This document shows, one piece after another, positions 465 through 27,213 of a stretch of DNA of 32,000 bases. The stretch comes from an uncultured archaeon (GTDB taxonomy: Archaea; Asgardarchaeota; Thorarchaeia; Thorarchaeales; Thorarchaeaceae). The translations under genes were made by a program, and so were the position numbers. The notes beneath the pieces are model-generated. The model ran no database searches. It worked only from the letters and a program-made list of their open reading frames with translations, and was not told the DNA's origin. Numbering within the stretch: position 1 is the first letter of the stretch; every line of letters begins with the position of its first letter. The DNA is taken from NCBI GenBank assembly GCA_964648855.1, contig CAZYLT010000010.1, forward strand, positions 60,001 through 92,000, written 5' to 3'.

Positions 465-2216
465 ATGACAATACAAAAAGACAATCTCGGAGAACACTAC
501 GGGAAGCTAGGTATTGGTAACCAGACCAATCTTGGAATTATGGGCAAAAACCGTGATATTAGCGTGGGAGAGATATTTCTAGTCTATTCTACAAGAGATG
601 ATCAGGAAAGAGTGTTCTTCTTTCGAGTTCTCGGGCTTGAGAATTACTTGAGACAGGTGGATGACTTAGCACGAGTTGCAGGCACACTCATGGTAGAAGG
701 CGATTCGTATCTTTCAGGAATTGAGAGAAATATGCTTCTCTCTGTAGAGGGAAAGATGCTTGGGTATGCTGAAGAAACAAAAGATGGATGGAAATTCCGG
801 GCGCCGCGAAGGTTGCCCGATCATCTGGCTGATGTTTACCGACCAGTCCCTGGTACATCTGACAAGGTGGTTAGAGAGATGCTTGAGAGCCAAACGGGCG
901 GCCACATGTATGTTGGAAATCTCCAAGTGGGAGAAGAAACACTCGATGTTCCTGCAAAAATTCCATCAAAATTCCTTCCAATGCATTTGGGAATCTTTGG
1001 GTCTACAGGTGCCGGCAAGAGCAACTTGATGATGGTTCTAATCAAATCTATAATTGACAATAACCTTCAGGTGAAACGAACCGGACAGGGTCAGACAATA
1101 TCTGCATTCTGCATTGACCCGCATGATGAGTTTGCTCAAGGTGTTGACGATTATGGGATCCAGCATATTGTAGAAGAGATGAGCCCAAGTACTCGTTCAG
1201 AGGTATTGGGAGATTTCTATTACTTAACAACCCATGCAGGCGCCACAATGAGGGAGATTAAAAGATATGCCCGACAAATTCGTATCTTATGGAGTGAGAT
1301 TAAGCCGCGTGATTTGTATTCTATAATGGACTTCACATCCCAAATGTATTCTTTTATTGATGCTCAGTATGCTCAACACCGCGAGAATTGGATTAGTGAA
1401 ATCTTACAGATGGATGAAGATCCTCATGGCCATCCTAAAGGGACGCTTCGAGCTGTTCAGCGACGTCTGAGTTTTGTTCAGAGGTCACCGATATTTATCG
1501 AGTCAGGCCAATCAATTCTCGGTGAGATATTCAAAGCCATGGAAACTGGTCGCATTCTTGTTGTCAATACCAGCCTTATGAGTGACATGGAGCAATTCCT
1601 TCTCACGACAATAGTGACTCGTACATTATCTGATATGCGGCGTGCGTTGAAGAGCAGCGGTAATCTTGGTGACTTTGATACTCAAGGAAAAAGCAGACTA
1701 CCATATCCGTTCTTCAAAGGAATCAAATCTGCAGCGAGGTCTTTCTACGGGAAGGATGGCAGTTCTGACAAGTCAAGCGTACGCGACCCCCGAAAGCTTC
1801 CAGTTATTCTCGTGACTGTAGAAGAGGCCCCCTCTATCTTGAATCCCGAATTAATGCGAGGTCGTTCCGTATTCAAGGATATCTCAAGGCAGGGTAGAAA
1901 GTTCAACATCGGCCTACTTGTTGTGAGCCAACAGGTCAGTGTCTTAGATAATGTCATCCTCTCCCAAATGAATACTGAAATAAACCTCCGGCTTGGAAAC
2001 GAACGCGAGATACAGGCATGCATAGATAATGCAAGTGTGAATATATCAGGATTTCAGAATGAGTTCAGAGTTATGGCTCGGGGAGAGGCATTACTAACAG
2101 CCTCATACAGAGAAATGCCGCTTCCAGTAAGGATACCACTATTTGATGACATCTTTAAGCGTGACAAGCATACCTACTCATCAGACACAGAGAAAGAAGA
2201 AAAACACATCCTATGA
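465..2216 (+). CDS. herA: HerA bipolar helicase/translocase (FtsK/HerA family), 583 aa
   Basis: N-terminal HAS-barrel-like region, Walker A GSTGAGKS, IDPHDEF, Walker B VTVEEA, arginine finger RQGRKF, SQQ motif; operon context. Confidence 0.92.
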   Translation: MTIQKDNLGEHYGKLGIGNQTNLGIMGKNRDISVGEIFLVYSTRDDQERVFFFRVLGLENYLRQVDDLARVAGTLMVEGDSYLSGIERNMLLSVEGKMLGYAEETKDGWKFRAPRRLPDHLADVYRPVPGTSDKVVREMLESQTGGHMYVGNLQVGEETLDVPAKIPSKFLPMHLGIFGSTGAGKSNLMMVLIKSIIDNNLQVKRTGQGQTISAFCIDPHDEFAQGVDDYGIQHIVEEMSPSTRSEVLGDFYYLTTHAGATMREIKRYARQIRILWSEIKPRDLYSIMDFTSQMYSFIDAQYAQHRENWISEILQMDEDPHGHPKGTLRAVQRRLSFVQRSPIFIESGQSILGEIFKAMETGRILVVNTSLMSDMEQFLLTTIVTRTLSDMRRALKSSGNLGDFDTQGKSRLPYPFFKGIKSAARSFYGKDGSSDKSSVRDPRKLPVILVTVEEAPSILNPELMRGRSVFKDISRQGRKFNIGLLVVSQQVSVLDNVILSQMNTEINLRLGNEREIQACIDNASVNISGFQNEFRVMARGEALLTASYREMPLPVRIPLFDDIFKRDKHTYSSDTEKEEKHIL

Positions 2217-2225
2217 GGAATATAG

Positions 2226-3536
2226 ATGACAGCTCGAATTGCTCACATCTCGGATACCCATCTTGGCACACGACCAGGTACAGGGGTACGGCAGAATGTA
2301 TGGGCAGTCGAGATGAGAACACGGCTTCTTGAGAATGACTTCTATGAACGGTTTGAAGAACTCTTTGAAAGAATCGGAGCACTTGAACCAAAGGTTGATC
2401 TTGTGGTTCACTCGGGGGACCTCTATAACTCTCCCTGGGAGGGCAATCCCACACAGCCACCTGTGGTTGCACAGGAGACCGCGATTAGAGTCCTGAAGGA
2501 CTTCACTGAGCGAACCGAAATTCCGGTGTTCATACTAGAAGGAAACCATGGTATATACCGAACGCTAGAGGTCTCCTTGCTTGATACTCTCAAAATGGCA
2601 GTCCCTCGATTGGAAATCGCAACACAACAGGAATTGAAACGCGCTATTGCGAAGGGCGAGCCGCTCGTTCGCGAGTACGAGAATTTGAATGTGTATTGTT
2701 TCCCGTATCTTGACAAGAGTGTTCTTGATTCGGCTGGACTGGTGGATGCTTTCATTGACTGGATTAGGACCTATCAAAAGCCGTCTTCCGATAAGGCTTC
2801 TATCGCTGTTGCACATGGCATGGAGCTAGACGAGAGTCTTTACTCTCCGATCTTTGACATGGGCTACGACTATATAGCGCTTGGACATGACCACCGACAA
2901 CATGCACACTCGAAGAATACGTGGTATGCCGGTTCCCCTGAACGCTGGAGATTCGACGAAATAAAGCATGAGAAGGGATTCATCGTAGTGGACATAGAAG
3001 AAGATAGTACTCTTGACATTACCCCTGAGCATTTTGATTTTGTTCGCCCTGTCTATAATGAAATGATGACAATTGATTCGGATGATACTGTCGCTACGAT
3101 GATTGAAAAGGTGCGCGCCTTTCTTGATGAGAAAGGTCTCAAATCGGAATGGGATATATCAACTGCTGGACGAGTCAGAATAGTGTTTGAGGGCTCCGCG
3201 AGTAGAGTCAAGCCAATGGACCTTACGATTGCATTGGAGAATTTTCGCCTTGAGGCATTTACCACAGGTTCAGAATACAACCTGGCGCAAATGGTATGGA
3301 CCATAAGACGTGACAAAGAAGAATTTACGGAAGCTGCTTATCCTGAGATAGAATCGGAGTATCTAATTGAAGACCCCGAACAAGACTTCAGGGAATATGT
3401 TGAAACTCTAGATATCGATGAACAATTCGACATCACCAAGCTCACCAAGGTTGCTGTCAAGGCCCTCAGAAAGGCTGTAAATCGGGATGAAGAAAAACTA
3501 GCCTTTGTGGACCTAGCGGAGGGTGGTGAGGAATGA
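2226..3536 (+). CDS. mre11: Mre11 nuclease, 436 aa
   Basis: Phosphoesterase motifs HISDTHLG, HSGDLY, GNH, AHG, ALGHDH, YAGSPE; ATGA overlap with rad50. Confidence 0.93.
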   Translation: MTARIAHISDTHLGTRPGTGVRQNVWAVEMRTRLLENDFYERFEELFERIGALEPKVDLVVHSGDLYNSPWEGNPTQPPVVAQETAIRVLKDFTERTEIPVFILEGNHGIYRTLEVSLLDTLKMAVPRLEIATQQELKRAIAKGEPLVREYENLNVYCFPYLDKSVLDSAGLVDAFIDWIRTYQKPSSDKASIAVAHGMELDESLYSPIFDMGYDYIALGHDHRQHAHSKNTWYAGSPERWRFDEIKHEKGFIVVDIEEDSTLDITPEHFDFVRPVYNEMMTIDSDDTVATMIEKVRAFLDEKGLKSEWDISTAGRVRIVFEGSASRVKPMDLTIALENFRLEAFTTGSEYNLAQMVWTIRRDKEEFTEAAYPEIESEYLIEDPEQDFREYVETLDIDEQFDITKLTKVAVKALRKAVNRDEEKLAFVDLAEGGEE

Positions 3537-5614
3537 AGATTCTGAGTATTGAACTCACTAATTTCAAGCCCTTTAGAGATGTTCGCCTCCCCTCCGATGG
3601 TCATCTCCCGGACGGTCTGATAATTATCAAGGGCCCAAACTCCACAGGAAAATCATCGATATTCGAGGCTGTTCTGTGGTGTCTATGGGGGTCAAATGCA
3701 GTTGAGCTGACGAATGAGGAATTGATCAGCTTTTCGTCCTCATTTTGCAAGGTTATTGTTGAGTTCGAAGTAGCAGGCCGTCAATACAAAATAGACCGCT
3801 CCTATGATCCAGCTAGTAGACTATCGGTTGTGTTCTACCAACAGACCGTTGATGGTTGGAAGCGAATTGCCGATGGCAGTAATTCAGTCGAGTCAAAACT
3901 TGAAGAAATCATCAACTTGGGACTACGGCAGGCATTAAACACGCTTCTTGTACGGCAAGGTGAAGTCGCGCTAATTGCGAACGCCACTGCATCGGTTCTT
4001 CGAGGTCTGTTGGTTGACGTGTACAATATTGAGATTCTGGGCGATATGTCTGGACACATATCGCATCTCGAAGATGACTTGAAGACTCGAATAGGGGTTT
4101 TGGAGAAAAAGTATGTTCGACCTGAAGTGATTGAAAAGCAAATTGAAGACATGGAAGAACGAATTGAAGAACATAGAAGCAATATCGAATCGAAGAAGGA
4201 TGAAATAGCAGGAACAGAGGACTTACTGAAGGATGTACCTCAACCTCACCTATTGGATGCAATTCAGGATATGTCTTCTAAATTAGAACGGAAGGAGGTC
4301 CAACTGAAGAGTGTACAGAAGACAAGAGACTCCTACCTGGAGGAAGCAGGTCTACTCACAGCAGAAGAAGAACTGGTACAAGCGCGTTTGGACACATTAT
4401 CCAAAAATGAGGAAGATGTGAAAGGCCGAATAGAGGAATTAGGCGAAGAGAAATCACAGATTGAGCGGGAGATAGGATCAATTAGAGGAACAGAGAGAGA
4501 CCTGCAAGAGAAAATCGAAACCCTTCAAGAAGCAAAGGACGTGACAATCTGTCCAACATGCTCAAAGCCTCTAACGGCAGAGGAGCGCGATGACATTCTA
4601 CAAGAATATCAGGACACTATCAAAGAAGGGACAGCGAGGATTAGCAAGCTTCAGGCGAAGAACAAGAAGGTCTCTGAAGAAGCTCAGAACCAAAAGAAGC
4701 GCCTGGGAGAAATCCAAAAAGCTCTCCAAGCCATTGGGCAAATAAAGAGACATCAGAATGACGTAGCTGATGCTGAAAACGAACTAGATGAAGCCCGAGA
4801 GGATTTGGAGAAAGCAATTGCAAAGCTGGGAGTAAAGGATCTTCAGACTCTTCTTGAGAAACATGGCGTAAAGAAACTAGGTGAACTGCAACGACTTGTT
4901 GAAGCTTGGATTAGTAAATTAGGGTCTCTGAAGAATGAGATTGAATCCATAAATAAGATGATTGAAGGCGAGAAAAGGCGCATAGCAGATGCCAAGAAGA
5001 AAATCGAAAAAATGGATGAGATTGGCTCAGAGATTGACGACCTAAGATCTCTACATGAGCATGCACAATATGTCCGACGAAAGCTAGTGAGTGGCTTCTT
5101 GGCAGACTACGTTATTCAGAAGCGTCTCATAGGAATAATTCGGGGTGCTACCAATCCCTACGTACGTGCGTTTACGAGTGGCCAATACTCTGGTGTTGAT
5201 TTGGTACCTACACCTGGTCGTGGTCGTGGTGGGGCTGGACTTGAGCTCAAAATCCAAGATGTTCGTGACAATGCCGTTAAGAAGACATCCCAACTCAGTT
5301 TTGGAGACCGTACGGCCATCAGCCTTGGGCTACGGCTAGGTATCAGCCGGACAATGAGCGCAATCCGTCCTCTCAAAGACAGCCCTGCATTGTCACCCCG
5401 AGTTAGATGCGTTCTGCTGGATGAGCCATTGGGGGGCTTGGATAGTGCACGGAGAAAATCAGTAGTTCAGAATCTAGTGAATGATCAATCATTCCGACAA
5501 ATCTTCCTCATCACACACACGGATGTCCAAGGATGGGAAGGAGTGCCTGTAGTCGATGTTTCAAAGACAGGTACAAGCAGTGAGGCAAACTTGGTTCAAT
5601 CATCGGATATGTAA
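3533..5614 (+). CDS. rad50: Rad50 ATPase, 693 aa
   Basis: Walker A GPNSTGKS, Q-loop VRQGE, coiled coils with central zinc hook CPTC, signature LSFGDR, Walker B LLDEP, H-loop ITH. Confidence 0.93.
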   Translation: MKILSIELTNFKPFRDVRLPSDGHLPDGLIIIKGPNSTGKSSIFEAVLWCLWGSNAVELTNEELISFSSSFCKVIVEFEVAGRQYKIDRSYDPASRLSVVFYQQTVDGWKRIADGSNSVESKLEEIINLGLRQALNTLLVRQGEVALIANATASVLRGLLVDVYNIEILGDMSGHISHLEDDLKTRIGVLEKKYVRPEVIEKQIEDMEERIEEHRSNIESKKDEIAGTEDLLKDVPQPHLLDAIQDMSSKLERKEVQLKSVQKTRDSYLEEAGLLTAEEELVQARLDTLSKNEEDVKGRIEELGEEKSQIEREIGSIRGTERDLQEKIETLQEAKDVTICPTCSKPLTAEERDDILQEYQDTIKEGTARISKLQAKNKKVSEEAQNQKKRLGEIQKALQAIGQIKRHQNDVADAENELDEAREDLEKAIAKLGVKDLQTLLEKHGVKKLGELQRLVEAWISKLGSLKNEIESINKMIEGEKRRIADAKKKIEKMDEIGSEIDDLRSLHEHAQYVRRKLVSGFLADYVIQKRLIGIIRGATNPYVRAFTSGQYSGVDLVPTPGRGRGGAGLELKIQDVRDNAVKKTSQLSFGDRTAISLGLRLGISRTMSAIRPLKDSPALSPRVRCVLLDEPLGGLDSARRKSVVQNLVNDQSFRQIFLITHTDVQGWEGVPVVDVSKTGTSSEANLVQSSDM

Positions 5615-7269: not shown

Positions 7270-8442
7270 CTATTTTGCCATGCCCTTAAGCTCTTCCTTC
7301 TTTTTTGAAACTCTCTTTTCTAGCGACTTGATTTTTTCAGCTAGTTTTTCTGCTTGTTCTTCGTAGGCGTCTCTAGGCATTGCCCCCGATGAATGTCGCT
7401 CTTCAATATGATCTTGGAGTTGCTTGACAGACTTTAGTTCTGCATTCAATGACTTGATGTCTGCTTCTAGGTCAGCCACCTTGTTTTCGTCTTCGGTCTT
7501 GAACTGTTTCGCGGGGATAATCACACCAAGCTGATCTTGTGTCTTCTCTGCAAAATCTTGAAACTGATTTCTGAGTGCATCTATGTTCTTCTCTACTCGC
7601 TCTACCTTTTCTGTGGCAGTTTCAATATCTTTCTGCAAGTCGAACACTGCATTTACTAGTCTTCGTAGTGTATTCTCAAATTCTTCTGACACGACACCAC
7701 TCCCTGATTCTCTCATGCTCTTTTGTGTTGAATCGTTCCTAGTCTTGTCTTCAGCCCTTAGAGGCGTGGACTGCATTCTATTGAGCCAAGAGAATGCATT
7801 AAGTGCAAAATTCTTGTTATCTTCTTTCTTGAAGCCGCCGCCTCTTCTGAAGACCTCATAGCTGCTAATACAAATCACTCTCCCCTTTCCATGCTCCGCA
7901 ACAGCGATAACAGGTTTGCTGGGTGGGTCTGCGGTTCCTCCAGTCTTTGCCAAGACCTCTGCGTTGCTCTCCACTTCGAGTGTGCAACCAGATGGTAGCA
8001 AAATTTCATTAATTCCTTCCATGATAGGATGGTCTTCTAAATCCCTAATAATAGGCATAGTAGGTAGTCCATCGTTGTGTTTCTTATCTTTGATTGCAGT
8101 ATTGTCGAAAGTTATTCCGAAGGATTTGGATATATCGCTCATGTTATTCATGAGACCTCGATCCCCGCCCGAGTGGGAGAGGAGCATAAGACCGCCTCCG
8201 TCTTCAACGAACTCCATTAGTGCTGTTATCTCTGCCTTTCTTAGCTTGGAGCTGTTCGGACAGCCAAACACCATTATTGCTGCTGACTTGATTTCCTTTG
8301 GAAGAAGCATAAAATCTGTGTAGGCCTCAACATCATAGTCGTTATCTCGGAGTAATTGGCGTAGTTCTGAGTATGTTGTATCAAGCCTACCCCTTTCATT
8401 TTGAGTCTGGTCGAAGTAAATGAGCATTCTACGTCCGCTCAA
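7270..8442 (-). CDS. GIFT (IFT52/GldG-like, DUF4350-type) domain protein with C-terminal coiled coil
   Basis: IYFDQTQNE...EITALMEFVEDGGGLMLL...GITF...GKGRVICI...DNKNFALNAFSWL pattern, then a heptad-rich C-terminus. Start set at the TTG following a GGTGA RBS; GTG at 8451 is the alternative. Confidence 0.7.
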   Translation of the reverse strand: MSGRRMLIYFDQTQNERGRLDTTYSELRQLLRDNDYDVEAYTDFMLLPKEIKSAAIMVFGCPNSSKLRKAEITALMEFVEDGGGLMLLSHSGGDRGLMNNMSDISKSFGITFDNTAIKDKKHNDGLPTMPIIRDLEDHPIMEGINEILLPSGCTLEVESNAEVLAKTGGTADPPSKPVIAVAEHGKGRVICISSYEVFRRGGGFKKEDNKNFALNAFSWLNRMQSTPLRAEDKTRNDSTQKSMRESGSGVVSEEFENTLRRLVNAVFDLQKDIETATEKVERVEKNIDALRNQFQDFAEKTQDQLGVIIPAKQFKTEDENKVADLEADIKSLNAELKSVKQLQDHIEERHSSGAMPRDAYEEQAEKLAEKIKSLEKRVSKKKEELKGMAK

Positions 8443-8573
8443 TAATCTCACCTTGCTATGCCGAGTTATGAGAGAACTCCAGATTTCAACTAATGAGGCT
8501 TCCTTGGATGGCCTTTTCTACGATTATATCTCTTCCAGGTCCAAAAGACCTAACTATGTAATACGCTCCTCGA

Positions 8574-22077: not shown

Positions 22078-22881
22078 ATGCATGACCATATTCACCAGGA
22101 GCTTTACGCTTCAATAGCTACCTTAGATCAACTCAAGAAGATGTATGACCTTGGTGCGGTTGATATCAGGTCATTCCAGCGGGAATCTGATGCTCTCGTA
22201 AACGAAGTAAAAGGTCATTTGGATGAGATGAGGCGCATGGGTATTGATGTTGGGGGATTCATGGCAGAACAAAGAATCTTAGACGAGTTTCCAGATGCAG
22301 CAGGATTAATCGAATTCTACCAACACAGGTCCAGACCGGCATTAGATGGATACACAATGGATGAATATTACGATCATCTGGGGTTGGCTGTTCTAGATGT
22401 TGCTACTACACACTCTGCGAAAGGCTTGTTGGGTCTAGCGGACCTGATAGTTGAGGTTGTCAACCGTGTGCCGCAGTTCAAGTCAGTCAGCTATAATGAT
22501 GTCATAGAGGCGGTCAATAGGGTCGCAGAAAACGGACTGATTCCAGGGATACGAACTCTACGTGGTGGTGTGAAAGTTGTAGAGCTTCGTCCACTAGAGC
22601 TACGCGGCGACCAATCGGATGTGGTTAATCTTGCAGCTACGAAGGGATATACCTCTGTGGAAGAGGTCATGATGGAGCTCAAATGGTCTGAGGACCACGC
22701 TCGTCAAGTGCTATCAAGTCTAGTTGATGCGGGAATGGCTGTTGCCGATATTCGGTTCAGTACCGGCGGTAGATACTATTTCCCTGGGTTGCATCACAAG
22801 TCCTCAGATAAGGCAAATGGTCATGAAATGCTAGATAGAAGAAGAGATGGCCGAGACTCTCCCCCAGCTCATGGCTTGTAA
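22078..22881 (+). CDS. ESCRT-II Vps22/Vps36 (EAP30)-like tandem winged-helix protein with N-terminal Vps28-like helical domain
   Basis: DEYYDHLGLAVLDV...DVIEAV...PLELRGDQSDVVNLA..KGY...LKW..A..VL..LV..G matches the Vps22/Snf8 pattern; N-terminus ELYASIATLDQLKKMY resembles Vps28. Confidence 0.85.
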   Translation: MHDHIHQELYASIATLDQLKKMYDLGAVDIRSFQRESDALVNEVKGHLDEMRRMGIDVGGFMAEQRILDEFPDAAGLIEFYQHRSRPALDGYTMDEYYDHLGLAVLDVATTHSAKGLLGLADLIVEVVNRVPQFKSVSYNDVIEAVNRVAENGLIPGIRTLRGGVKVVELRPLELRGDQSDVVNLAATKGYTSVEEVMMELKWSEDHARQVLSSLVDAGMAVADIRFSTGGRYYFPGLHHKSSDKANGHEMLDRRRDGRDSPPAHGL

Positions 22882-22895
22882 TTCTATATTCATGC

Positions 22896-23609
22896 CTAAG
22901 AAATACGAATTTTTATTGCCGCCCTTTTCTTGTCTACCCATTCAGCGAGTTCTTGTTCCACTAGAATCCCTAGGACTGTTTTGATTTCATCTTCAGGGAG
23001 ACCTGCAAAATCTTGGTTACTTTCTTGGATTACGAGCGTCTTGACATCCAACCTAGTCTTACCTGTTTCAATAGCCCATGCATAAACGATATCCGCCCAG
23101 TCTTGTATGGGTCTCCAGTAGATCCGAAGCTGTCCATTGTTTTTTCCAATCCATTCAGCAACGTCCTTTTCAACCAGCTTTTCGGCTATGAACCTGAAGG
23201 CCTTGACTTTTCCAAATATGTCGCAAAAGGGCGGTTCAGTAATGAAGGTTGCAAGTGATATTTTGTGTGCCGTATTCCTCTGTGCCCACTCCAAGAGGAA
23301 ATCCCCCCATTCATCTGCCCAGAGATTTCGGTCATCTTCTTCGATAGGGATATGGTACATCAATTCATACTCTTTGACGCTGCCCCATGATGGCAAGAAA
23401 ATCTCGGGTTCAGCTGATACTTCCTCGACAACCTGAGTTTTGAATTCGTCTTTGATGGTCGTTATGTCTTCTTTCTCGTCGATACTGTCCACTTCAATGG
23501 CTTCGACTTCTTGCTCTTCAATTTCATCTGTTCTTGATTCAACTGTTTCTTCTTCTGAACGATCTTTTTCTTTACTCTTCTTCTCTTTTTTGCGCTCTCT
23601 GACTCCCAC
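22896..23609 (-). CDS. vps25: ESCRT-II Vps25-like protein with charged N-terminal extension
   Basis: W.DFLLEWA, AEWI.....LRIYWRPIQDWADIVYAWA..TG, F.GL.E......L..L.....AE, as in Vps25. Confidence 0.88.
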   Translation of the reverse strand: MGVRERKKEKKSKEKDRSEEETVESRTDEIEEQEVEAIEVDSIDEKEDITTIKDEFKTQVVEEVSAEPEIFLPSWGSVKEYELMYHIPIEEDDRNLWADEWGDFLLEWAQRNTAHKISLATFITEPPFCDIFGKVKAFRFIAEKLVEKDVAEWIGKNNGQLRIYWRPIQDWADIVYAWAIETGKTRLDVKTLVIQESNQDFAGLPEDEIKTVLGILVEQELAEWVDKKRAAIKIRIS

Positions 23610-23612
23610 GAA

Positions 23613-24836
23613 CTATGAACCCTCCGCCCATTCTTTGTATCTACGAATGTCTTCAGGCGATGTTGCCGGGCGAATATTTTCAATCGCATTGAGAAAGTCC
23701 AATCTTGACACTGGTCTTAATCTGAAGCCAGCTTTCTCTGTAGGAGGTATATCGCTCTGCAATTCTCTGATAGGTTCCATCGCGGCTTCTCTACATACAA
23801 CGCTGATATCTCTCCCGCTGTATCCCTCTGTCAGGTCAGCAAGCTCATTGAAGTCCACATCTGGTCCGACTTCAATATCATCAATATGTATTTTGAAAAT
23901 CCTGACTCTTGCGGCTTTATTGGGGAGGGGAACATTGATCCTTTTCTCAAATCGGGATCGTAAGGCGAAATCGATGTCCCATGGTAGATTTGTGGCCCCA
24001 ATGAGTGTAACTCTTTCATCACTCTTACTTGTTAGTCCTTGAAGTTCCGTCAACAATTGGGTCTTGAGTCTTCTTTCGCCACCAACATCTTCTCCGCGCC
24101 TTGAAACCCCTATAGAATCAAGCTCATCTATGAATATGATAGATGGCTGGTTGTCGCGCGCAGAATCGAAGAGGTGTTTAACCAATCGCTCTGATTCACC
24201 AAGCCATTTACTCACTATATTTGCTGCTGATACATTGAAGAAGGTGGCATTTACTTCGTTTGCAACCGCCTTGGCAATTAAGGTCTTTCCACAGCCTGCT
24301 GGTCCATAGAGTAGAATGCCTTTCCAAGGCTGCCTAGCCTTGCCTTTGAACAACTCGGGGTGCTTCATGGGTGATATGATGGCATCATGTATAGCCTGTT
24401 TTGCATCATTGAGTCCTGCAACTTCTGACATCTTGACATCAGGGCGCTCGGAGAGGATTGTATCAGAAATCATCTCGTTGAGCCTTATCTCATCCTCATC
24501 TTCCTCTTCAGGCGGGCTACTTGCTGGTTTCTCATGTCTTATACTATCATCATGGATTGGTTCAGGCGGCCTGGCGAGACCCTTTTCTTGTCCCCTAGCT
24601 TTTTTCTTGATGCCCGAAAGATAACGAACCCTATCTACACACTCTTGAGCCCGTTTGAGGTAATGCTTTCGGACTGAAGGGAGACTCGTTGCATTTGAGA
24701 GTTTGATCAATATCTTACTGGCTTTGAGGTATTTTTGACAGGCCTCCTTCTTCAGTCCTCTCTGGTCCAGATCGATAGCTCTGTCGAGGAGTTCTCGTAA
24801 GCCTTTATCGAGTCTAGTTCCATTGGTATCGCTCAT
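23613..24836 (-). CDS. vps4: Vps4 AAA ATPase (MIT + AAA)
   Basis: N-terminal MIT helices, acidic linker, VAGL..AK, PWKGILLYGPAGCGKT, pore loop SKWLGESE, FIDELD, GATN.PW.ID, GYSGRDI. Confidence 0.93.
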   Translation of the reverse strand: MSDTNGTRLDKGLRELLDRAIDLDQRGLKKEACQKYLKASKILIKLSNATSLPSVRKHYLKRAQECVDRVRYLSGIKKKARGQEKGLARPPEPIHDDSIRHEKPASSPPEEEDEDEIRLNEMISDTILSERPDVKMSEVAGLNDAKQAIHDAIISPMKHPELFKGKARQPWKGILLYGPAGCGKTLIAKAVANEVNATFFNVSAANIVSKWLGESERLVKHLFDSARDNQPSIIFIDELDSIGVSRRGEDVGGERRLKTQLLTELQGLTSKSDERVTLIGATNLPWDIDFALRSRFEKRINVPLPNKAARVRIFKIHIDDIEVGPDVDFNELADLTEGYSGRDISVVCREAAMEPIRELQSDIPPTEKAGFRLRPVSRLDFLNAIENIRPATSPEDIRRYKEWAEGS

Positions 24837-25028
24837 TGTTACCCCGTTAGAAAAATGCTGTATTGGTTGTTAAGAGCTTCTGTATTGCCCACAAACTACT
24901 GAGTTTTTCGAAAAGGATGTTTAGAACCGCGCCTTAGAAACACCCGCACAGTTTCATTCCAGATGACTGCGAAGTGTTAAAATGGCATCCATATTATTGA
25001 AAGTGAAGAAGAATCTTACTTCTTCAGG
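24837..25028. promoter_or_regulatory. Divergent promoter region between vps4-vps25 and ESCRT-III
   Basis: 192-nt AT-rich spacer with TTAA-type boxes at about 24870 (minus strand) and about 24977 (plus strand). Confidence 0.4.
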
Positions 25029-25652
25029 GTGAGCAAATTGGGTATCTTCAAGAAAGCCTTCTCGTGGGGACGAAAGAAGCCTGATATCAATGAAGTTACA
25101 AGTCAGCTTCGCGTTCTATCAAAACAACTTGAAAGACAGAGAAACAAGTTGGAAAAAGAAGAACGAGATACAAAGGCAAGAGCCATCAACGCACGAAAGA
25201 ACGGAAACACGGAAGCCTTTCGGACCTATGCAAAGGAAATGGTGAGATTCAGACGTTTTGCTCTCTCAATTGATAAGTCGCGTCTTCAGATTTTGAAGAT
25301 ACTGGCTCATATAACTCGAGCACAAACCACCGCAAAAGCATCCAAGGCCCTTGACGATGTAGCTGATATTTTGGGTCTTCTTGGAGATGCCACGGACACC
25401 TCGAAAGTAATCGAAAATGCAGATGAAATAGCCATGCGGCTGGAAGAGTTCGAGATTGAGAGCGGAATTGCAGGTGAAGCTTTCGACTCCACAACTGAAT
25501 CTGAGGTGACTTCAGATGAATTGAGTGAAGCCATGAGAGAAATAGAGGCTGCCGCCCAAGTAGAGGGTTCTACTACAGGGGCGCATCCGATGACTGAAGC
25601 AGAGGAATTGGAAGAAGCCATCAAGTCATTAGAGAAAGAACTTGGTGTTTGA
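25029..25652 (+). CDS. ESCRT-III (Snf7 domain), Vps2/24/46 (CHMP1-3)-like
   Basis: Amphipathic N-terminus LGIFKKAFSW, LERQ..KLEKEE...K.....ARK.GN.E..R.YAKE.VR, basic N-half and acidic C-half, MIM1-like C-terminal ELEEAIKSL. Confidence 0.9.
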   Translation: MSKLGIFKKAFSWGRKKPDINEVTSQLRVLSKQLERQRNKLEKEERDTKARAINARKNGNTEAFRTYAKEMVRFRRFALSIDKSRLQILKILAHITRAQTTAKASKALDDVADILGLLGDATDTSKVIENADEIAMRLEEFEIESGIAGEAFDSTTESEVTSDELSEAMREIEAAAQVEGSTTGAHPMTEAEELEEAIKSLEKELGV

Positions 25653-25653
25653 A

Positions 25654-27213
25654 TCACCATCGACGATATTCATGGGTGTCGCCATACTGGTCGAGTTCCT
25701 TTCTAATACCATACGAGTCCCGCATCAAACCTCTGTATCTTCTTATGAAGTCTTCAGGTACAATTCTTCCACTGCGGAGTAGGTCTACCGTTTCAGAGAG
25801 AGCGGATTGCAGTTCGCGTTCATTTCTCCTTAATTGCTCGAAACCCATATCGTATCCTTGATTCCTTCGTCTGCTATCTCGATGCCCAAGTGTTCTTCTG
25901 AGCTCCTCAGCCAATTCATCTTCGTATTTCTGCTTCTTTTGGTATCTACTTTGTGGGCTCCAAGGACGGTTCACCTCATCCCGGTATGGCACATAATATC
26001 CTCTCTTTGTTTCGGGAACTTGACTCACCTGATCAGTTGACAGAATCGAGTAGATCAGCTCCTCAATCTTCAATCTCACATCGCTGACATTAACACTGGT
26101 CGCCTCGATCTTTCGTACCCGGTGCATGTCGTCCTGCACGTACCTATCAAACTTCTTTGCGATCTGTATGTAATCTGAGAGGACCTGTTCCGTTTGTTCG
26201 TCACAATCAACTCGAACATCACCCTGCTTTAACTTCAAAACCAATCGTTTTCTGAACCTTCCATCCTCTTCAAGAGATTTGAGATAGGCCAAGGGGAAGT
26301 CGAAGACGACCTCTGTCTTTTTGCGTACTAGTCCAGTTTCTGCAACGAATATGAGACGCTTGTTCGTAATATACAAGATCCCTGTGGTCTTATCATGCTT
26401 CAAGAAGTCGCTCCCACTGAGTTTTATCTCGGGAATTGCACATACAGGAAGCTCGTTTACCGACAGGTCTGAATACTCGTAGAATCCCGCGAAATGCTTC
26501 CTATAGTAGTCAAGACCTTCTAGATGCTCTGTTAGTTCACCCAAATCTAATTCTAGTGCTTGGAGTGAATCGTCAATATTGCTCTTGTATTGTCGTCCGA
26601 TATGAGTTACGCGATTGGTCACGCCCTCAACAAATGGGAATTGACCTGTTTCCCATGTTTGGTAATCAATGAGTCCTTTTGTTTCTGCGAGCATTTTCTT
26701 GGCTACTATCTCGGCTTGGTTTGTAACGCGATTCTTGATAGCTATGAACTCATCTTGAATCTGTTCAACCCTATCTTCGAACCACTTGAAGCCAAGAAAA
26801 TTTGCCATTCTTAATGAAACAAGAATCCTTTTCGCGGAGGCGAGCCTAGTATTGAACTCTCTGAGTTTGGTGTGGCCGTAGTGAATACTCATGACTGCAT
26901 TACGCAGTTCGTGAGCTAGGTTTCTGCGTTTATCTTCAATTCCCGCAATCCGAGTTGAATAGCAATTTGGACATATCTCTTCAATACGTTTTGCAGTAAC
27001 AAAACTCTGTGATTCACACTCAGGACAATTTTCCGGTTGCTCGCCCATTGGAACCCTCCCAATATTATGATGGCACTCTGCGCACATTGTGTATTCGCTT
27101 GATTTTGAATCAAGGCAATTTGTGCATAGCAAAGCGCCACAGTCCTCGCACATATGCGTTGAGCGATTATCGCCACAAAGGCTGCAATAATTCGATGGTG
27201 AACCTTTTGTCAA
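25654..27213 (-). CDS. Zn-finger / coiled-coil / PH(GRAM/GLUE-like) / steadiness-box-like protein, candidate ESCRT-I subunit or adaptor
   Basis: Six CxxC pairs in the first 84 aa, heptad region, GILYITNKRLIF...DFPL..L PH-like strands, C-terminal DLLRSGRIVPEDFIRRYR.L hairpin. GGAGG RBS before TTG 27213. Confidence 0.75.
   Translation of the reverse strand: MTKGSPSNYCSLCGDNRSTHMCEDCGALLCTNCLDSKSSEYTMCAECHHNIGRVPMGEQPENCPECESQSFVTAKRIEEICPNCYSTRIAGIEDKRRNLAHELRNAVMSIHYGHTKLREFNTRLASAKRILVSLRMANFLGFKWFEDRVEQIQDEFIAIKNRVTNQAEIVAKKMLAETKGLIDYQTWETGQFPFVEGVTNRVTHIGRQYKSNIDDSLQALELDLGELTEHLEGLDYYRKHFAGFYEYSDLSVNELPVCAIPEIKLSGSDFLKHDKTTGILYITNKRLIFVAETGLVRKKTEVVFDFPLAYLKSLEEDGRFRKRLVLKLKQGDVRVDCDEQTEQVLSDYIQIAKKFDRYVQDDMHRVRKIEATSVNVSDVRLKIEELIYSILSTDQVSQVPETKRGYYVPYRDEVNRPWSPQSRYQKKQKYEDELAEELRRTLGHRDSRRRNQGYDMGFEQLRRNERELQSALSETVDLLRSGRIVPEDFIRRYRGLMRDSYGIRKELDQYGDTHEYRRW

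Follow-up and report, generated by a model that had tools for sequence, protein, structure and literature searches.

A Thorarchaeota gene joining a Vps28 N-terminal domain to the winged helices of Vps22

[quoted passage not shown] The C-terminal four-helix bundle of Vps28 contacts ESCRT-II, and the N-terminal helical domain of Vps22 pairs Vps22 with Vps36 in the ESCRT-II stalk. Here, we analyse a gene at positions 22078-22881 (+) of a 32,000-nucleotide stretch of Thorarchaeota DNA (hereafter the window; contig C10:60001-92000 of a 3.11-Mb metagenome-assembled genome in 62 contigs, 94.6% complete), in which an N-terminal domain of the Vps28 type is followed on one polypeptide by the winged helices of Vps22.

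The closest described system is the Thorarchaeota 'Vps22#' (asCOG cog.002769, KXH75178.1) of Makarova et al. 2024 (mBio; PMC10936438), who describe the Vps22 proteins of Asgard archaea (cog.002769) as 'fused to an SB', or steadiness box, and whose Table S3 matches aa 1-70 of KXH75178.1 to PF03997, 'VPS28 protein (N-terminal domain - SB)', at HHpred 99. Because that table makes the same domain call, the central finding here is already published. 'Vps22#' has the same architecture, a VPS28-N head followed by EAP30 winged helices, and the same ESCRT neighbourhood including a Znr_PH_CC_SB protein; orthologues from the Thorarchaeota reference genomes AB_25 and SMTZ1-45 fall within the family we recovered, KXH75178.1 itself not being confirmed by accession. 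The fusion is unmentioned in a 2023 Vps23 preprint and in a 2020 Asgard diversity preprint. UEV-Vps28 and E2-Vps23 fusions of Heimdallarchaeota (Hatano et al. 2022, PMC9192718) likewise place ESCRT-I modules on one polypeptide, and their relatives (UQ_con or UEV plus VPS28) occur among our library hits, but these proteins stay inside ESCRT-I and keep the Vps28 C-terminal domain (CTD), whereas the Thorarchaeota fusion crosses the boundary that separates ESCRT-I from ESCRT-II. Asgard archaea lack Vps36, and how their ESCRT-I and ESCRT-II connect is an open question (Hatano et al. 2022, PMC9192718).

To the published fact we add the restriction of the fusion to the Thorarchaeota order, the replacement of the Vps22 helical domain, the extent of the head as a whole five-helix domain, a deletion-fusion origin argued from synteny, the finding of no separate Vps28 in this genome and a specific predicted partner interface. 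The domain identities (aa 1-84 as Vps28 N-terminal headpiece, aa 94-237 as Vps22 winged helices) are close to certain, and we hold with good confidence the joint statement that the protein is a chimeric ESCRT subunit of deletion-fusion origin with a named docking partner.

Domain architecture of the fusion protein

The open reading frame (ORF) starts with an ATG at 22078, a position consistent with the starts of its orthologues, and ends with a stop codon at 22879-22881; the ORF list and translation give 267 aa, and the orthologues are likewise full-length, which bears out the gene as first annotated. Its parts, with the evidence for each (HMM, hidden Markov model; AF2, AlphaFold2; VIA, VIA-align; pLDDT, predicted local distance difference test), are as follows.

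22078..22881, + strand: Vps28N-Vps22 fusion gene, 267 aa plus stop (ORF list, translation)
22078..22329, + strand: aa 1-84, Vps28 N-terminal domain (ESCRT-I headpiece / steadiness-box) (hhalign, HMM, AF2, VIA, Foldseek)
22330..22356, + strand: aa 85-93, short linker, likely fusion junction (pLDDT ~63, without secondary structure; EAP30 match from aa 92)
22357..22788, + strand: aa 94-237, tandem winged-helix core of Vps22, with winged helix 1 (wH1) at ~94-169 and wH2 at ~177-234 (Pfam EAP30, AF2, Foldseek)
22789..22878, + strand: aa 238-267, C-terminal tail, poorly conserved, probably disordered (pLDDT 50-69)

Scanned alone against Pfam, the N-terminal ~90 aa gave VPS28 at E 0.093 (12.9 bits; cut-off 24.5) beside HisKA_3 at E 0.061, a weak and ambiguous outcome that is by itself uninformative for aa 1-90. 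Because single-sequence evidence secures the winged-helix half alone, the N-terminal claim needed family-level tests, for which we aligned 53 non-redundant orthologous N-domains (alignment A1). Strongly conserved positions in A1 include E8 L9 A11 S12 I13 A14 T15 L16 D17 and F71 P72 A74. When these N-domains were scanned singly, 46 of the 53 matched PF03997 (best E 4.3e-5), the next families being GvpG with 14 and SHOCT with 8. The orthologue from the sister family (L038) exceeds Pfam's own VPS28 cut-off (26.9 vs 24.5 bits). Searching all PDB sequences with the A1 profile returned four yeast Vps28-N chains at the top (2f6m_B, 2p22_B, 2f66_B and 2caz_B; E 0.0055-0.01, over profile positions 6-68).

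We compared A1 with 30 genuine Asgard Vps28 proteins that lie above the PF03997 cut-off, nearly all across almost the whole profile. The A1 HMM scored 34-73 bits on 30/30 of them, matching 29 over approximately positions 4-84, and hhalign of A1 against an alignment of 20 Asgard Vps28 gave 99.3% probability (E 7e-21, 81 columns; A1 5-85 with Asgard Vps28 26-106). A search of 1.84 billion representative proteins with A1 yielded 54 matches at E<=0.001, and Pfam domains found in the 47 of these that were scanned comprise VPS28 (28), EAP30 (3, which are fusions), UQ_con (4), UEV (2) and Vps23_core (4). The N-domain thus matches the Vps28 PF03997 N-terminal profile through its family profile, the single sequence being sub-threshold, and at the level of sequence families its similarity to Vps28 is far beyond chance. 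Identity to eukaryotic and Asgard Vps28 is ~21-24%, and the conserved motif ELYAxIATLD is common to both.

AlphaFold2 run on A1 predicted the domain with pLDDT 89.1 and a predicted TM-score (pTM) of 0.78, as a hairpin of helices 2-24 and 30-53 followed by short helices at 58-64, 67-70 and 72-84. The top 12 Foldseek matches to this model are all Vps28-N chains (from 2caz, 6vme, 2f6m, 2f66 and 2p22), at TM 0.64-0.73 over 76-85 columns except for 2p22_B (50 columns, TM 0.55); their E-values are modest, ~0.06-0.6. In an exhaustive VIA-align search of 48,161 PDB chains, human VPS28-N ranked first (6vme_E, Z 11.6, root-mean-square deviation 2.0 Å, 80 residues aligned) and yeast Vps28-N second (2caz_E, Z 9.2). 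These are the only chains to reach Z>=8, and the third is a ribosomal protein at Z 7.6. The predicted model has the hairpin and short helices of the Vps28-N fold, the same five-helix headpiece fold as eukaryotic and Asgard Vps28, and on this model aa 1-84 are the whole Vps28-N domain, more than a hairpin.

In the second half, Pfam EAP30 (PF04157) matches aa 92-224 with E 3.9e-13 (50.1 bits; cut-off 26.8) over profile positions 83-218 of 219. As the match begins at position 83, the canonical N-terminal helical part (profile ~1-82) is left unmatched, while the tandem winged-helix core is present. In the full-length model (pLDDT 88.7) a low-confidence linker at 84-93 is followed by two winged-helix domains and then by a tail disordered from ~238; that tail is ~15 aa longer than in most orthologues, which usually have ~252 aa. 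The core is shared with eukaryotic Vps22/SNF8/EAP30 (3CUQ_A, 2ZME_A, 1U5T_A; 16-24% identity) and is 28-42% identical to that of other Asgard Vps22, which likewise lie by vps25, vps4 and ESCRT-III genes. Foldseek placed human Vps22 first (2zme_A / 3cuq_A, E 2e-9), then yeast Vps22 (1u5t_A, 3e-7) and Vps36 chains (3e-5), so that, judged on the predicted structure, the core is nearer Vps22 than Vps36. Pfam detects no PH domain in the fusion protein, the PH-like domain of the locus being on a separate 519-aa protein; neither the GLUE/PH domain nor the closer similarity expected of a Vps36 is found. The protein is not a full Vps28 either: since the VPS28 profile match ends at about position 61-66 and winged helices follow residue 93, only its N-domain belongs to that family, and the CTD four-helix bundle, which in Vps28 binds ESCRT-II, is absent, with the Vps22 winged helices in its place.

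Canonical Vps22 begins with a basic N-terminal helix and a helical domain (EAP30 1-82), and the fusion protein has neither. As a comparison set we extracted 19 Vps22 ORFs from other Asgard families, whose N-termini read MGLxEIERK...ELMxxEL...FEKKY. EAP30 covers profile position 1-16 to ~218 in 8 of the 9 non-Thorarchaeota proteins scanned, which therefore carry the canonical helical domain; in the ninth (L050) it covers positions 104-218 only. The Thorarchaeota N-domain HMM scored at most 6.4 bits on 18 non-Thorarchaeota Vps22, and hhalign of the N-domain against the canonical Asgard Vps22 helical domain gave 0.3%. Because the N-domain profile matches Vps28 and not the canonical helical domain, these profile comparisons indicate that the Vps28 head is a replacement of that domain, not an addition to it.

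The initial annotation had read the first ~80 aa as following a Vps28 N-terminal pattern, and the profiles (hhalign 99.3%, PF03997 in 46/53, Vps28-N chains at the top of the PDB) agree. Its proposed profile check of aa 1-85 separates a specifically Vps28-N-like domain from a generic helical or SHOCT domain (SHOCT 8 vs 46/53), and its proposed superposition ranks the human chain 6vme_E (Z 11.6) ahead of yeast 2caz_E (Z 9.2). The rest had been called an EAP30 tandem winged helix lacking the usual Vps22 N-terminal helices, which the profile range 83-218 and the 0.3% hhalign result uphold. Of its label Vps22/36, the EAP30 core and the Vps22 half stand, and the Vps36 half does not (E 2e-9 vs 3e-5). 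The fusion that it proposed is thus supported, though already published (PMC10936438).

Distribution and origin

Across 251 sampled Asgard genomes, the fusion protein has full-length matches in every genome of its own family (59/59) and in a sister family of the same order, whose orthologue L038 is 43% identical and carries the Thorarchaeota-type head. Beyond these two families most matches start at ~residue 70-95, in the winged-helix part. In the N-domain phylogeny the fused heads of both families fall into a single clade (support 96/87), and all close homologues listed with a source name (n=120) are labelled Thorarchaeota or Promethearchaeota, except one labelled Lokiarchaeota. By these comparisons the fusion is confined, in the sample, to the Thorarchaeota order plus one divergent lineage, and is not a general feature of Asgard Vps22, to which PMC10936438 had attributed the SB fusion generally.

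The divergent lineage encodes a 315-aa variant (P0239; L122:6001-6948 of GCA_054387495.1, also L123 and L124) with a Vps28-like head at aa 22-97, a low-complexity disordered linker of ~60-80 residues and then two winged helices. Its genes keep the same vps22 / vps25 / vps4 / Snf7 order, and directly upstream lies a gene for a Zn-ribbon and Yip1 membrane protein. In the N-domain tree P0239 groups with the Vps28 of family f15 on a very long branch; a single clade with the Thorarchaeota heads is nevertheless not rejected by the approximately unbiased test (p-AU 0.40), and P0239 may or may not share their origin.

PF03997 scores above its cut-off in 165/251 genomes, representing a full Vps28 in most non-Thorarchaeota families, and the Thorarchaeota family shows weak hits alone, in 18/59 genomes. 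Re-examination of four genomes of that family placed the best PF03997 hit at a distance from vps22, within a frame of 414-441 aa. For genome G239 the hit (L089:2556-3788, contig C268) is a 410-aa protein of one genus in the family, and with 25.6 bits on Pfam VPS28 over profile positions 10-185 it reaches the cut-off. We rejected it as a Vps28: the protein is a K/E-rich coiled coil in a non-ESCRT context, probably a compositional false positive, and one that could mislead tables of Vps28 presence and absence. In the genome studied here a PF03997 search for a separate Vps28 returned nothing at E<=1 (the assembly being 94.6% complete), and the N-domain HMM run over its 15,309 ORFs matched the fusion ORF alone.

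Elsewhere in Asgard archaea the two genes are neighbours. Among 30 non-Thorarchaeota loci, all 28 with enough flank have vps22 directly downstream of vps28 on the same strand, with gaps of up to ~520 bp and, under ATG-based start calls, three slightly overlapping pairs. This adjacency suggests that an in-frame deletion fused both genes, and on the synteny we consider it likely that the fusion originated by deletion between vps28 and vps22 genes lying side by side in the same orientation. The fusion would have arisen once, most likely in the ancestor of the Thorarchaeota order, through a deletion that took out the CTD of Vps28, the spacer between the genes and the helical domain of Vps22; with one breakpoint in the inter-domain linker of Vps28 and the other where the Vps22 helical domain ends, such an in-frame deletion would leave exactly the observed protein.

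A candidate docking partner and competing readings

The fusion gene heads a compact ESCRT locus, flanked upstream by an Asp/Asn-type class II tRNA synthetase gene and downstream by two TldD/PmbA genes. The association of Vps22/EAP30 with vps25, vps4 and ESCRT-III genes is found here in the adjoining genes at 22896-25652.

22896..23609, - strand: Vps25 (ESCRT-II), convergent with the fusion gene (Pfam ESCRT-II PF05871, E 4e-13)
23613..24836, - strand: Vps4 AAA ATPase (MIT, AAA, Vps4_C) (Pfam)
25029..25652, + strand: ESCRT-III (Snf7 family) subunit (Pfam Snf7, E 4.3e-10)
25654..27213, - strand: 519-aa Zn-ribbon / coiled-coil / PH-like protein with a Vps23-like C-terminal steadiness-box hairpin (weak Pfam hits; Znr_PH_CC_SB type, PMC10936438)
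25657..25866, - strand: last 70 aa of the 519-aa protein, a conserved hairpin with the motif ...LLRsGRlVPEDFIRRYRgLMRDSY... (alignment A3)

The 519-aa protein, whose family Makarova et al. 2024 place in Znr_PH_CC_SB (PMC10936438), has several CxxC zinc ribbons, a coiled coil, a PH/GRAM/GLUE-like region at ~aa 253-326 and the Vps23-like C-terminal hairpin; its weak Pfam hits are to B-box, DZR, bPH_3, GRAM and Vps36-GLUE. It unites on one chain modules of eukaryotic Vps36 (PH, zinc fingers) and of Vps23 (coiled coil, steadiness box). It occurs in 58/60 sampled genomes of the family, on the same contig as vps22 and ~2.7-4.3 kb away in the listed loci; in this genome its gene lies 2.8 kb from the fusion gene. 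Its last ~55 residues are strongly conserved in alignment A3 (invariant R31 D39 F40 R42 R43 Y44 L47). Against Pfam the C-terminal 100 aa matched no family, and the hairpin family profile matched the C-terminal hairpin of yeast Vps23 (2f66_A) weakly, at E 0.72.

A complex predicted from aa 1-88 of the fusion protein and the C-terminal 70 aa of its 519-aa neighbour reached a score of 0.68, the best of 3 controls giving 0.02. Three runs share 100% of contacts, the partner has pLDDT >=78, and the predicted interface, formed by N-domain residues 3-40 and hairpin residues 27-56, comprises the most conserved stretches of both. The mark for such predictions, which this complex passed, is reached by 58/80 solved complexes and 2/110 mismatched pairs, counts that hold only roughly here because our own alignments were used. 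The score may also merely reflect likeness, because Vps23-C:Vps28-N complexes have already been solved. For Loki- and Thorarchaeota, Hatano et al. 2022 (PMC9192718) report from yeast two-hybrid experiments that steadiness-box proteins interact with Vps28 or with Vps22. From the modelled complex we lean slightly towards the C-terminal hairpin of the 519-aa protein as the partner of the Vps28 head, for which it is the best candidate.

A mechanism can be outlined on this basis. The protein consists of a Vps28 head (aa 1-84), a ~10-residue linker and two Vps22 winged-helix domains (aa 94-237), the Vps28 CTD being absent. By analogy with the eukaryotic ESCRT-I headpiece, the head would pack on a Vps23-type steadiness-box hairpin, and homology and synteny suggest that the winged-helix core still binds the neighbouring Vps25, presumably through its C-terminal winged helix, and thereby reaches ESCRT-III and Vps4. 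The covalent link may then substitute for the bridge between the Vps28 CTD and Vps36, and the outcome would be an ESCRT-I/II supercomplex, bridged covalently, that couples a module binding membrane or cargo directly to the ESCRT-III nucleator. The Thorarchaeota gene would hard-wire the two complexes and so show which modules must come together, and a covalent chimera would indicate that, with the modules linked, neither the CTD of Vps28 nor the helical domain of Vps22 is needed any longer. The gene also provides a compact construct with which to rebuild an Asgard ESCRT-I/II/III cascade.

Several points weigh against the chimeric subunit with its docking partner. The single sequence falls below the Pfam VPS28 cut-off with HisKA_3 scoring similarly, and the assignment comes from family profiles and a predicted fold. 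The deletion scenario derives from synteny in other lineages, with no intermediate found, and absence calls for this genome are bounded by its 94.6% completeness. At the partner, the hairpin of the 519-aa protein resembles Vps23 weakly by sequence (E 0.72; no Pfam family), and the predicted complex resembles the solved Vps23-C:Vps28-N complexes (2F6M, 2CAZ, 2P22, 6VME). The loss of the Vps22 helical domain leaves assembly of an ESCRT-II stalk unexplained. Thorarchaeota Vps22 self-interacts in yeast two-hybrid (Hatano et al., PMC9192718), and the head could instead, or additionally, homo-oligomerise.

This last point leads to the best-surviving alternative, in which the Vps28-like head is chiefly a self-association module that stands in for the lost helical domain and yields Vps22 homodimers or oligomers, with no Vps23-type docking. 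Beside the two-hybrid result, it fits the missing canonical helical domain, the general nature of steadiness-box hairpins as packing modules and the position of one of the two cross-linked dimer surfaces of Heimdallarchaeota Vps22, in the N-terminal helical part (PMC9192718). In solved ESCRT-I, however, Vps28-N packs on Vps23 and Vps37 and not on itself (2F6M, 2CAZ, 6VME), the 519-aa partner is present in 58/60 family genomes, and the predicted heterocomplex with the neighbouring hairpin stands at 0.68 against 0.02 for the best control, subject to the same caveat of likeness. We judge self-association as the chief role of the head unlikely.

Far less probable is an N-terminal region that is a generic steadiness-box or CdvA-like hairpin, related to Vps23/Vps37 or convergent and not derived from Vps28. 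The weak single-sequence Pfam scores would agree with such a hairpin, as would the CdvA/SB profile that Makarova Table S3 (PMC10936438) also assigns to this region at 85%, a weak Vps23_core hit in one orthologue and the VIA-align match of the Vps23 hairpin to the N-domain model (Z 7.0, 57 residues). Yet the Vps28-N match spans the full five-helix domain (80/88 residues), its Z-scores of 11.6 and 9.2 are clear of the next chain at 7.6, hhalign to Asgard Vps28 reaches 99.3% over 81 columns, and among the 47 significant library hits scanned VPS28 outnumbers Vps23_core by 28 to 4.

We give almost no credence to a diverged but ordinary Vps22 helical domain without any fusion: its length and position (~90 aa before wH1) and its helical hairpin would be alike, but the profile stays at or below 6.4 bits on the N-termini of canonical Vps22 vs 34-73 on Vps28, hhalign gives 0.3% vs 99.3%, and EAP30 starts at position 1-16 in 8/9 non-Thorarchaeota Vps22 vs 83 here. 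Hardly any weight goes, too, to an assembly or gene-calling chimera of two genes, as a metagenome-assembled genome in 62 contigs might suggest, against an uninterrupted fusion ORF in 59/59 family genomes, the sister family and >130 database clusters, on contigs of up to 3 Mb.

Further ESCRT parts and other genes

The initial annotation had proposed looking for a second, canonical Vps22 in the genome, and an EAP30 protein with the canonical helical domain does exist, at the C-terminus of an 822-aa protein. Its last ~210 aa are a canonical EAP30 module, with helical domain and two winged helices (profile 18-215), and its N-terminal 590 aa match no Pfam family and, in the ESM Atlas, a Thorarchaeota-specific cluster alone (score 0.82). 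The gene lies in a possible second ESCRT-like locus of the same genome (contig C5:41882-47072; L091:5882-11073), beside genes for an Arf-family small GTPase, a 370-aa winged-helix-like protein and a 223-aa protein. The last of these has an N-terminal coiled coil, a Pro/Glu-rich linker and a C-terminal CdvA/steadiness-box-like hairpin, and is possibly the 'BAR-SB' type of Makarova 2024 Table S3; a search of PDB sequences with it gave nothing useful. The C5 locus could be the source of a Vps36-like stalk partner (the 822-aa protein) and of a third headpiece hairpin (the 223-aa protein).

Of the other EAP30 hits in the genome, one on contig C4 is an MCM winged helix and not an ESCRT protein, and the remaining ones are sub-threshold. 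A 12-bit Vps23_core hit was taken as noise. Pfam searches of the genome found no ubiquitin and no UEV, the UEV search being a weak one in that its control gave no match anywhere. Thorarchaeota seem to lack ubiquitin (Hatano et al., PMC9192718), in agreement with the genome search, and the lineage appears to be without ubiquitin, UEV and a separate Vps28.

A wider and more tentative proposal, which we would put somewhat short of an even chance, is that ESCRT-I and ESCRT-II of Thorarchaeota have become a single supercomplex that works independently of ubiquitin. In it the Vps28 head, joined covalently to the Vps22 core, would be the docking site for a Vps23-like hairpin carried by a Zn-ribbon/PH adaptor for membrane or cargo; the 223-aa coiled-coil/SB protein could supply the third headpiece strand, and the 822-aa EAP30 protein could act as a Vps36-like stalk partner. 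If so, the fusion would be a natural Rosetta stone for a direct ancestral contact between Asgard Vps28 and Vps22 that predates Vps36.

Within the window, the Vps25 protein (22896-23609) carries a very acidic, probably disordered N-terminal extension of ~90 aa ahead of its ESCRT-II winged helices, which found no match in a Pfam scan. In its longest call, with a GTG at 27009, the first TldD/PmbA gene shares ~200 nt (27009-27213) with the 5' end of the opposite-strand 519-aa gene; the true TldD/PmbA start is probably further downstream, because the first Pfam domain of that call begins only at aa 137. Away from the ESCRT locus, a row of genes at 465-5614 (+) for a HerA-like helicase, an Mre11-like phosphoesterase and a Rad50 with zinc hook forms an archaeal DNA-end-resection operon. 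A 393-aa protein at 7270-8451 (-) matches the GIFT domain of IFT52 (E 1.1e-16), which is known chiefly from intraflagellar transport in eukaryotes.

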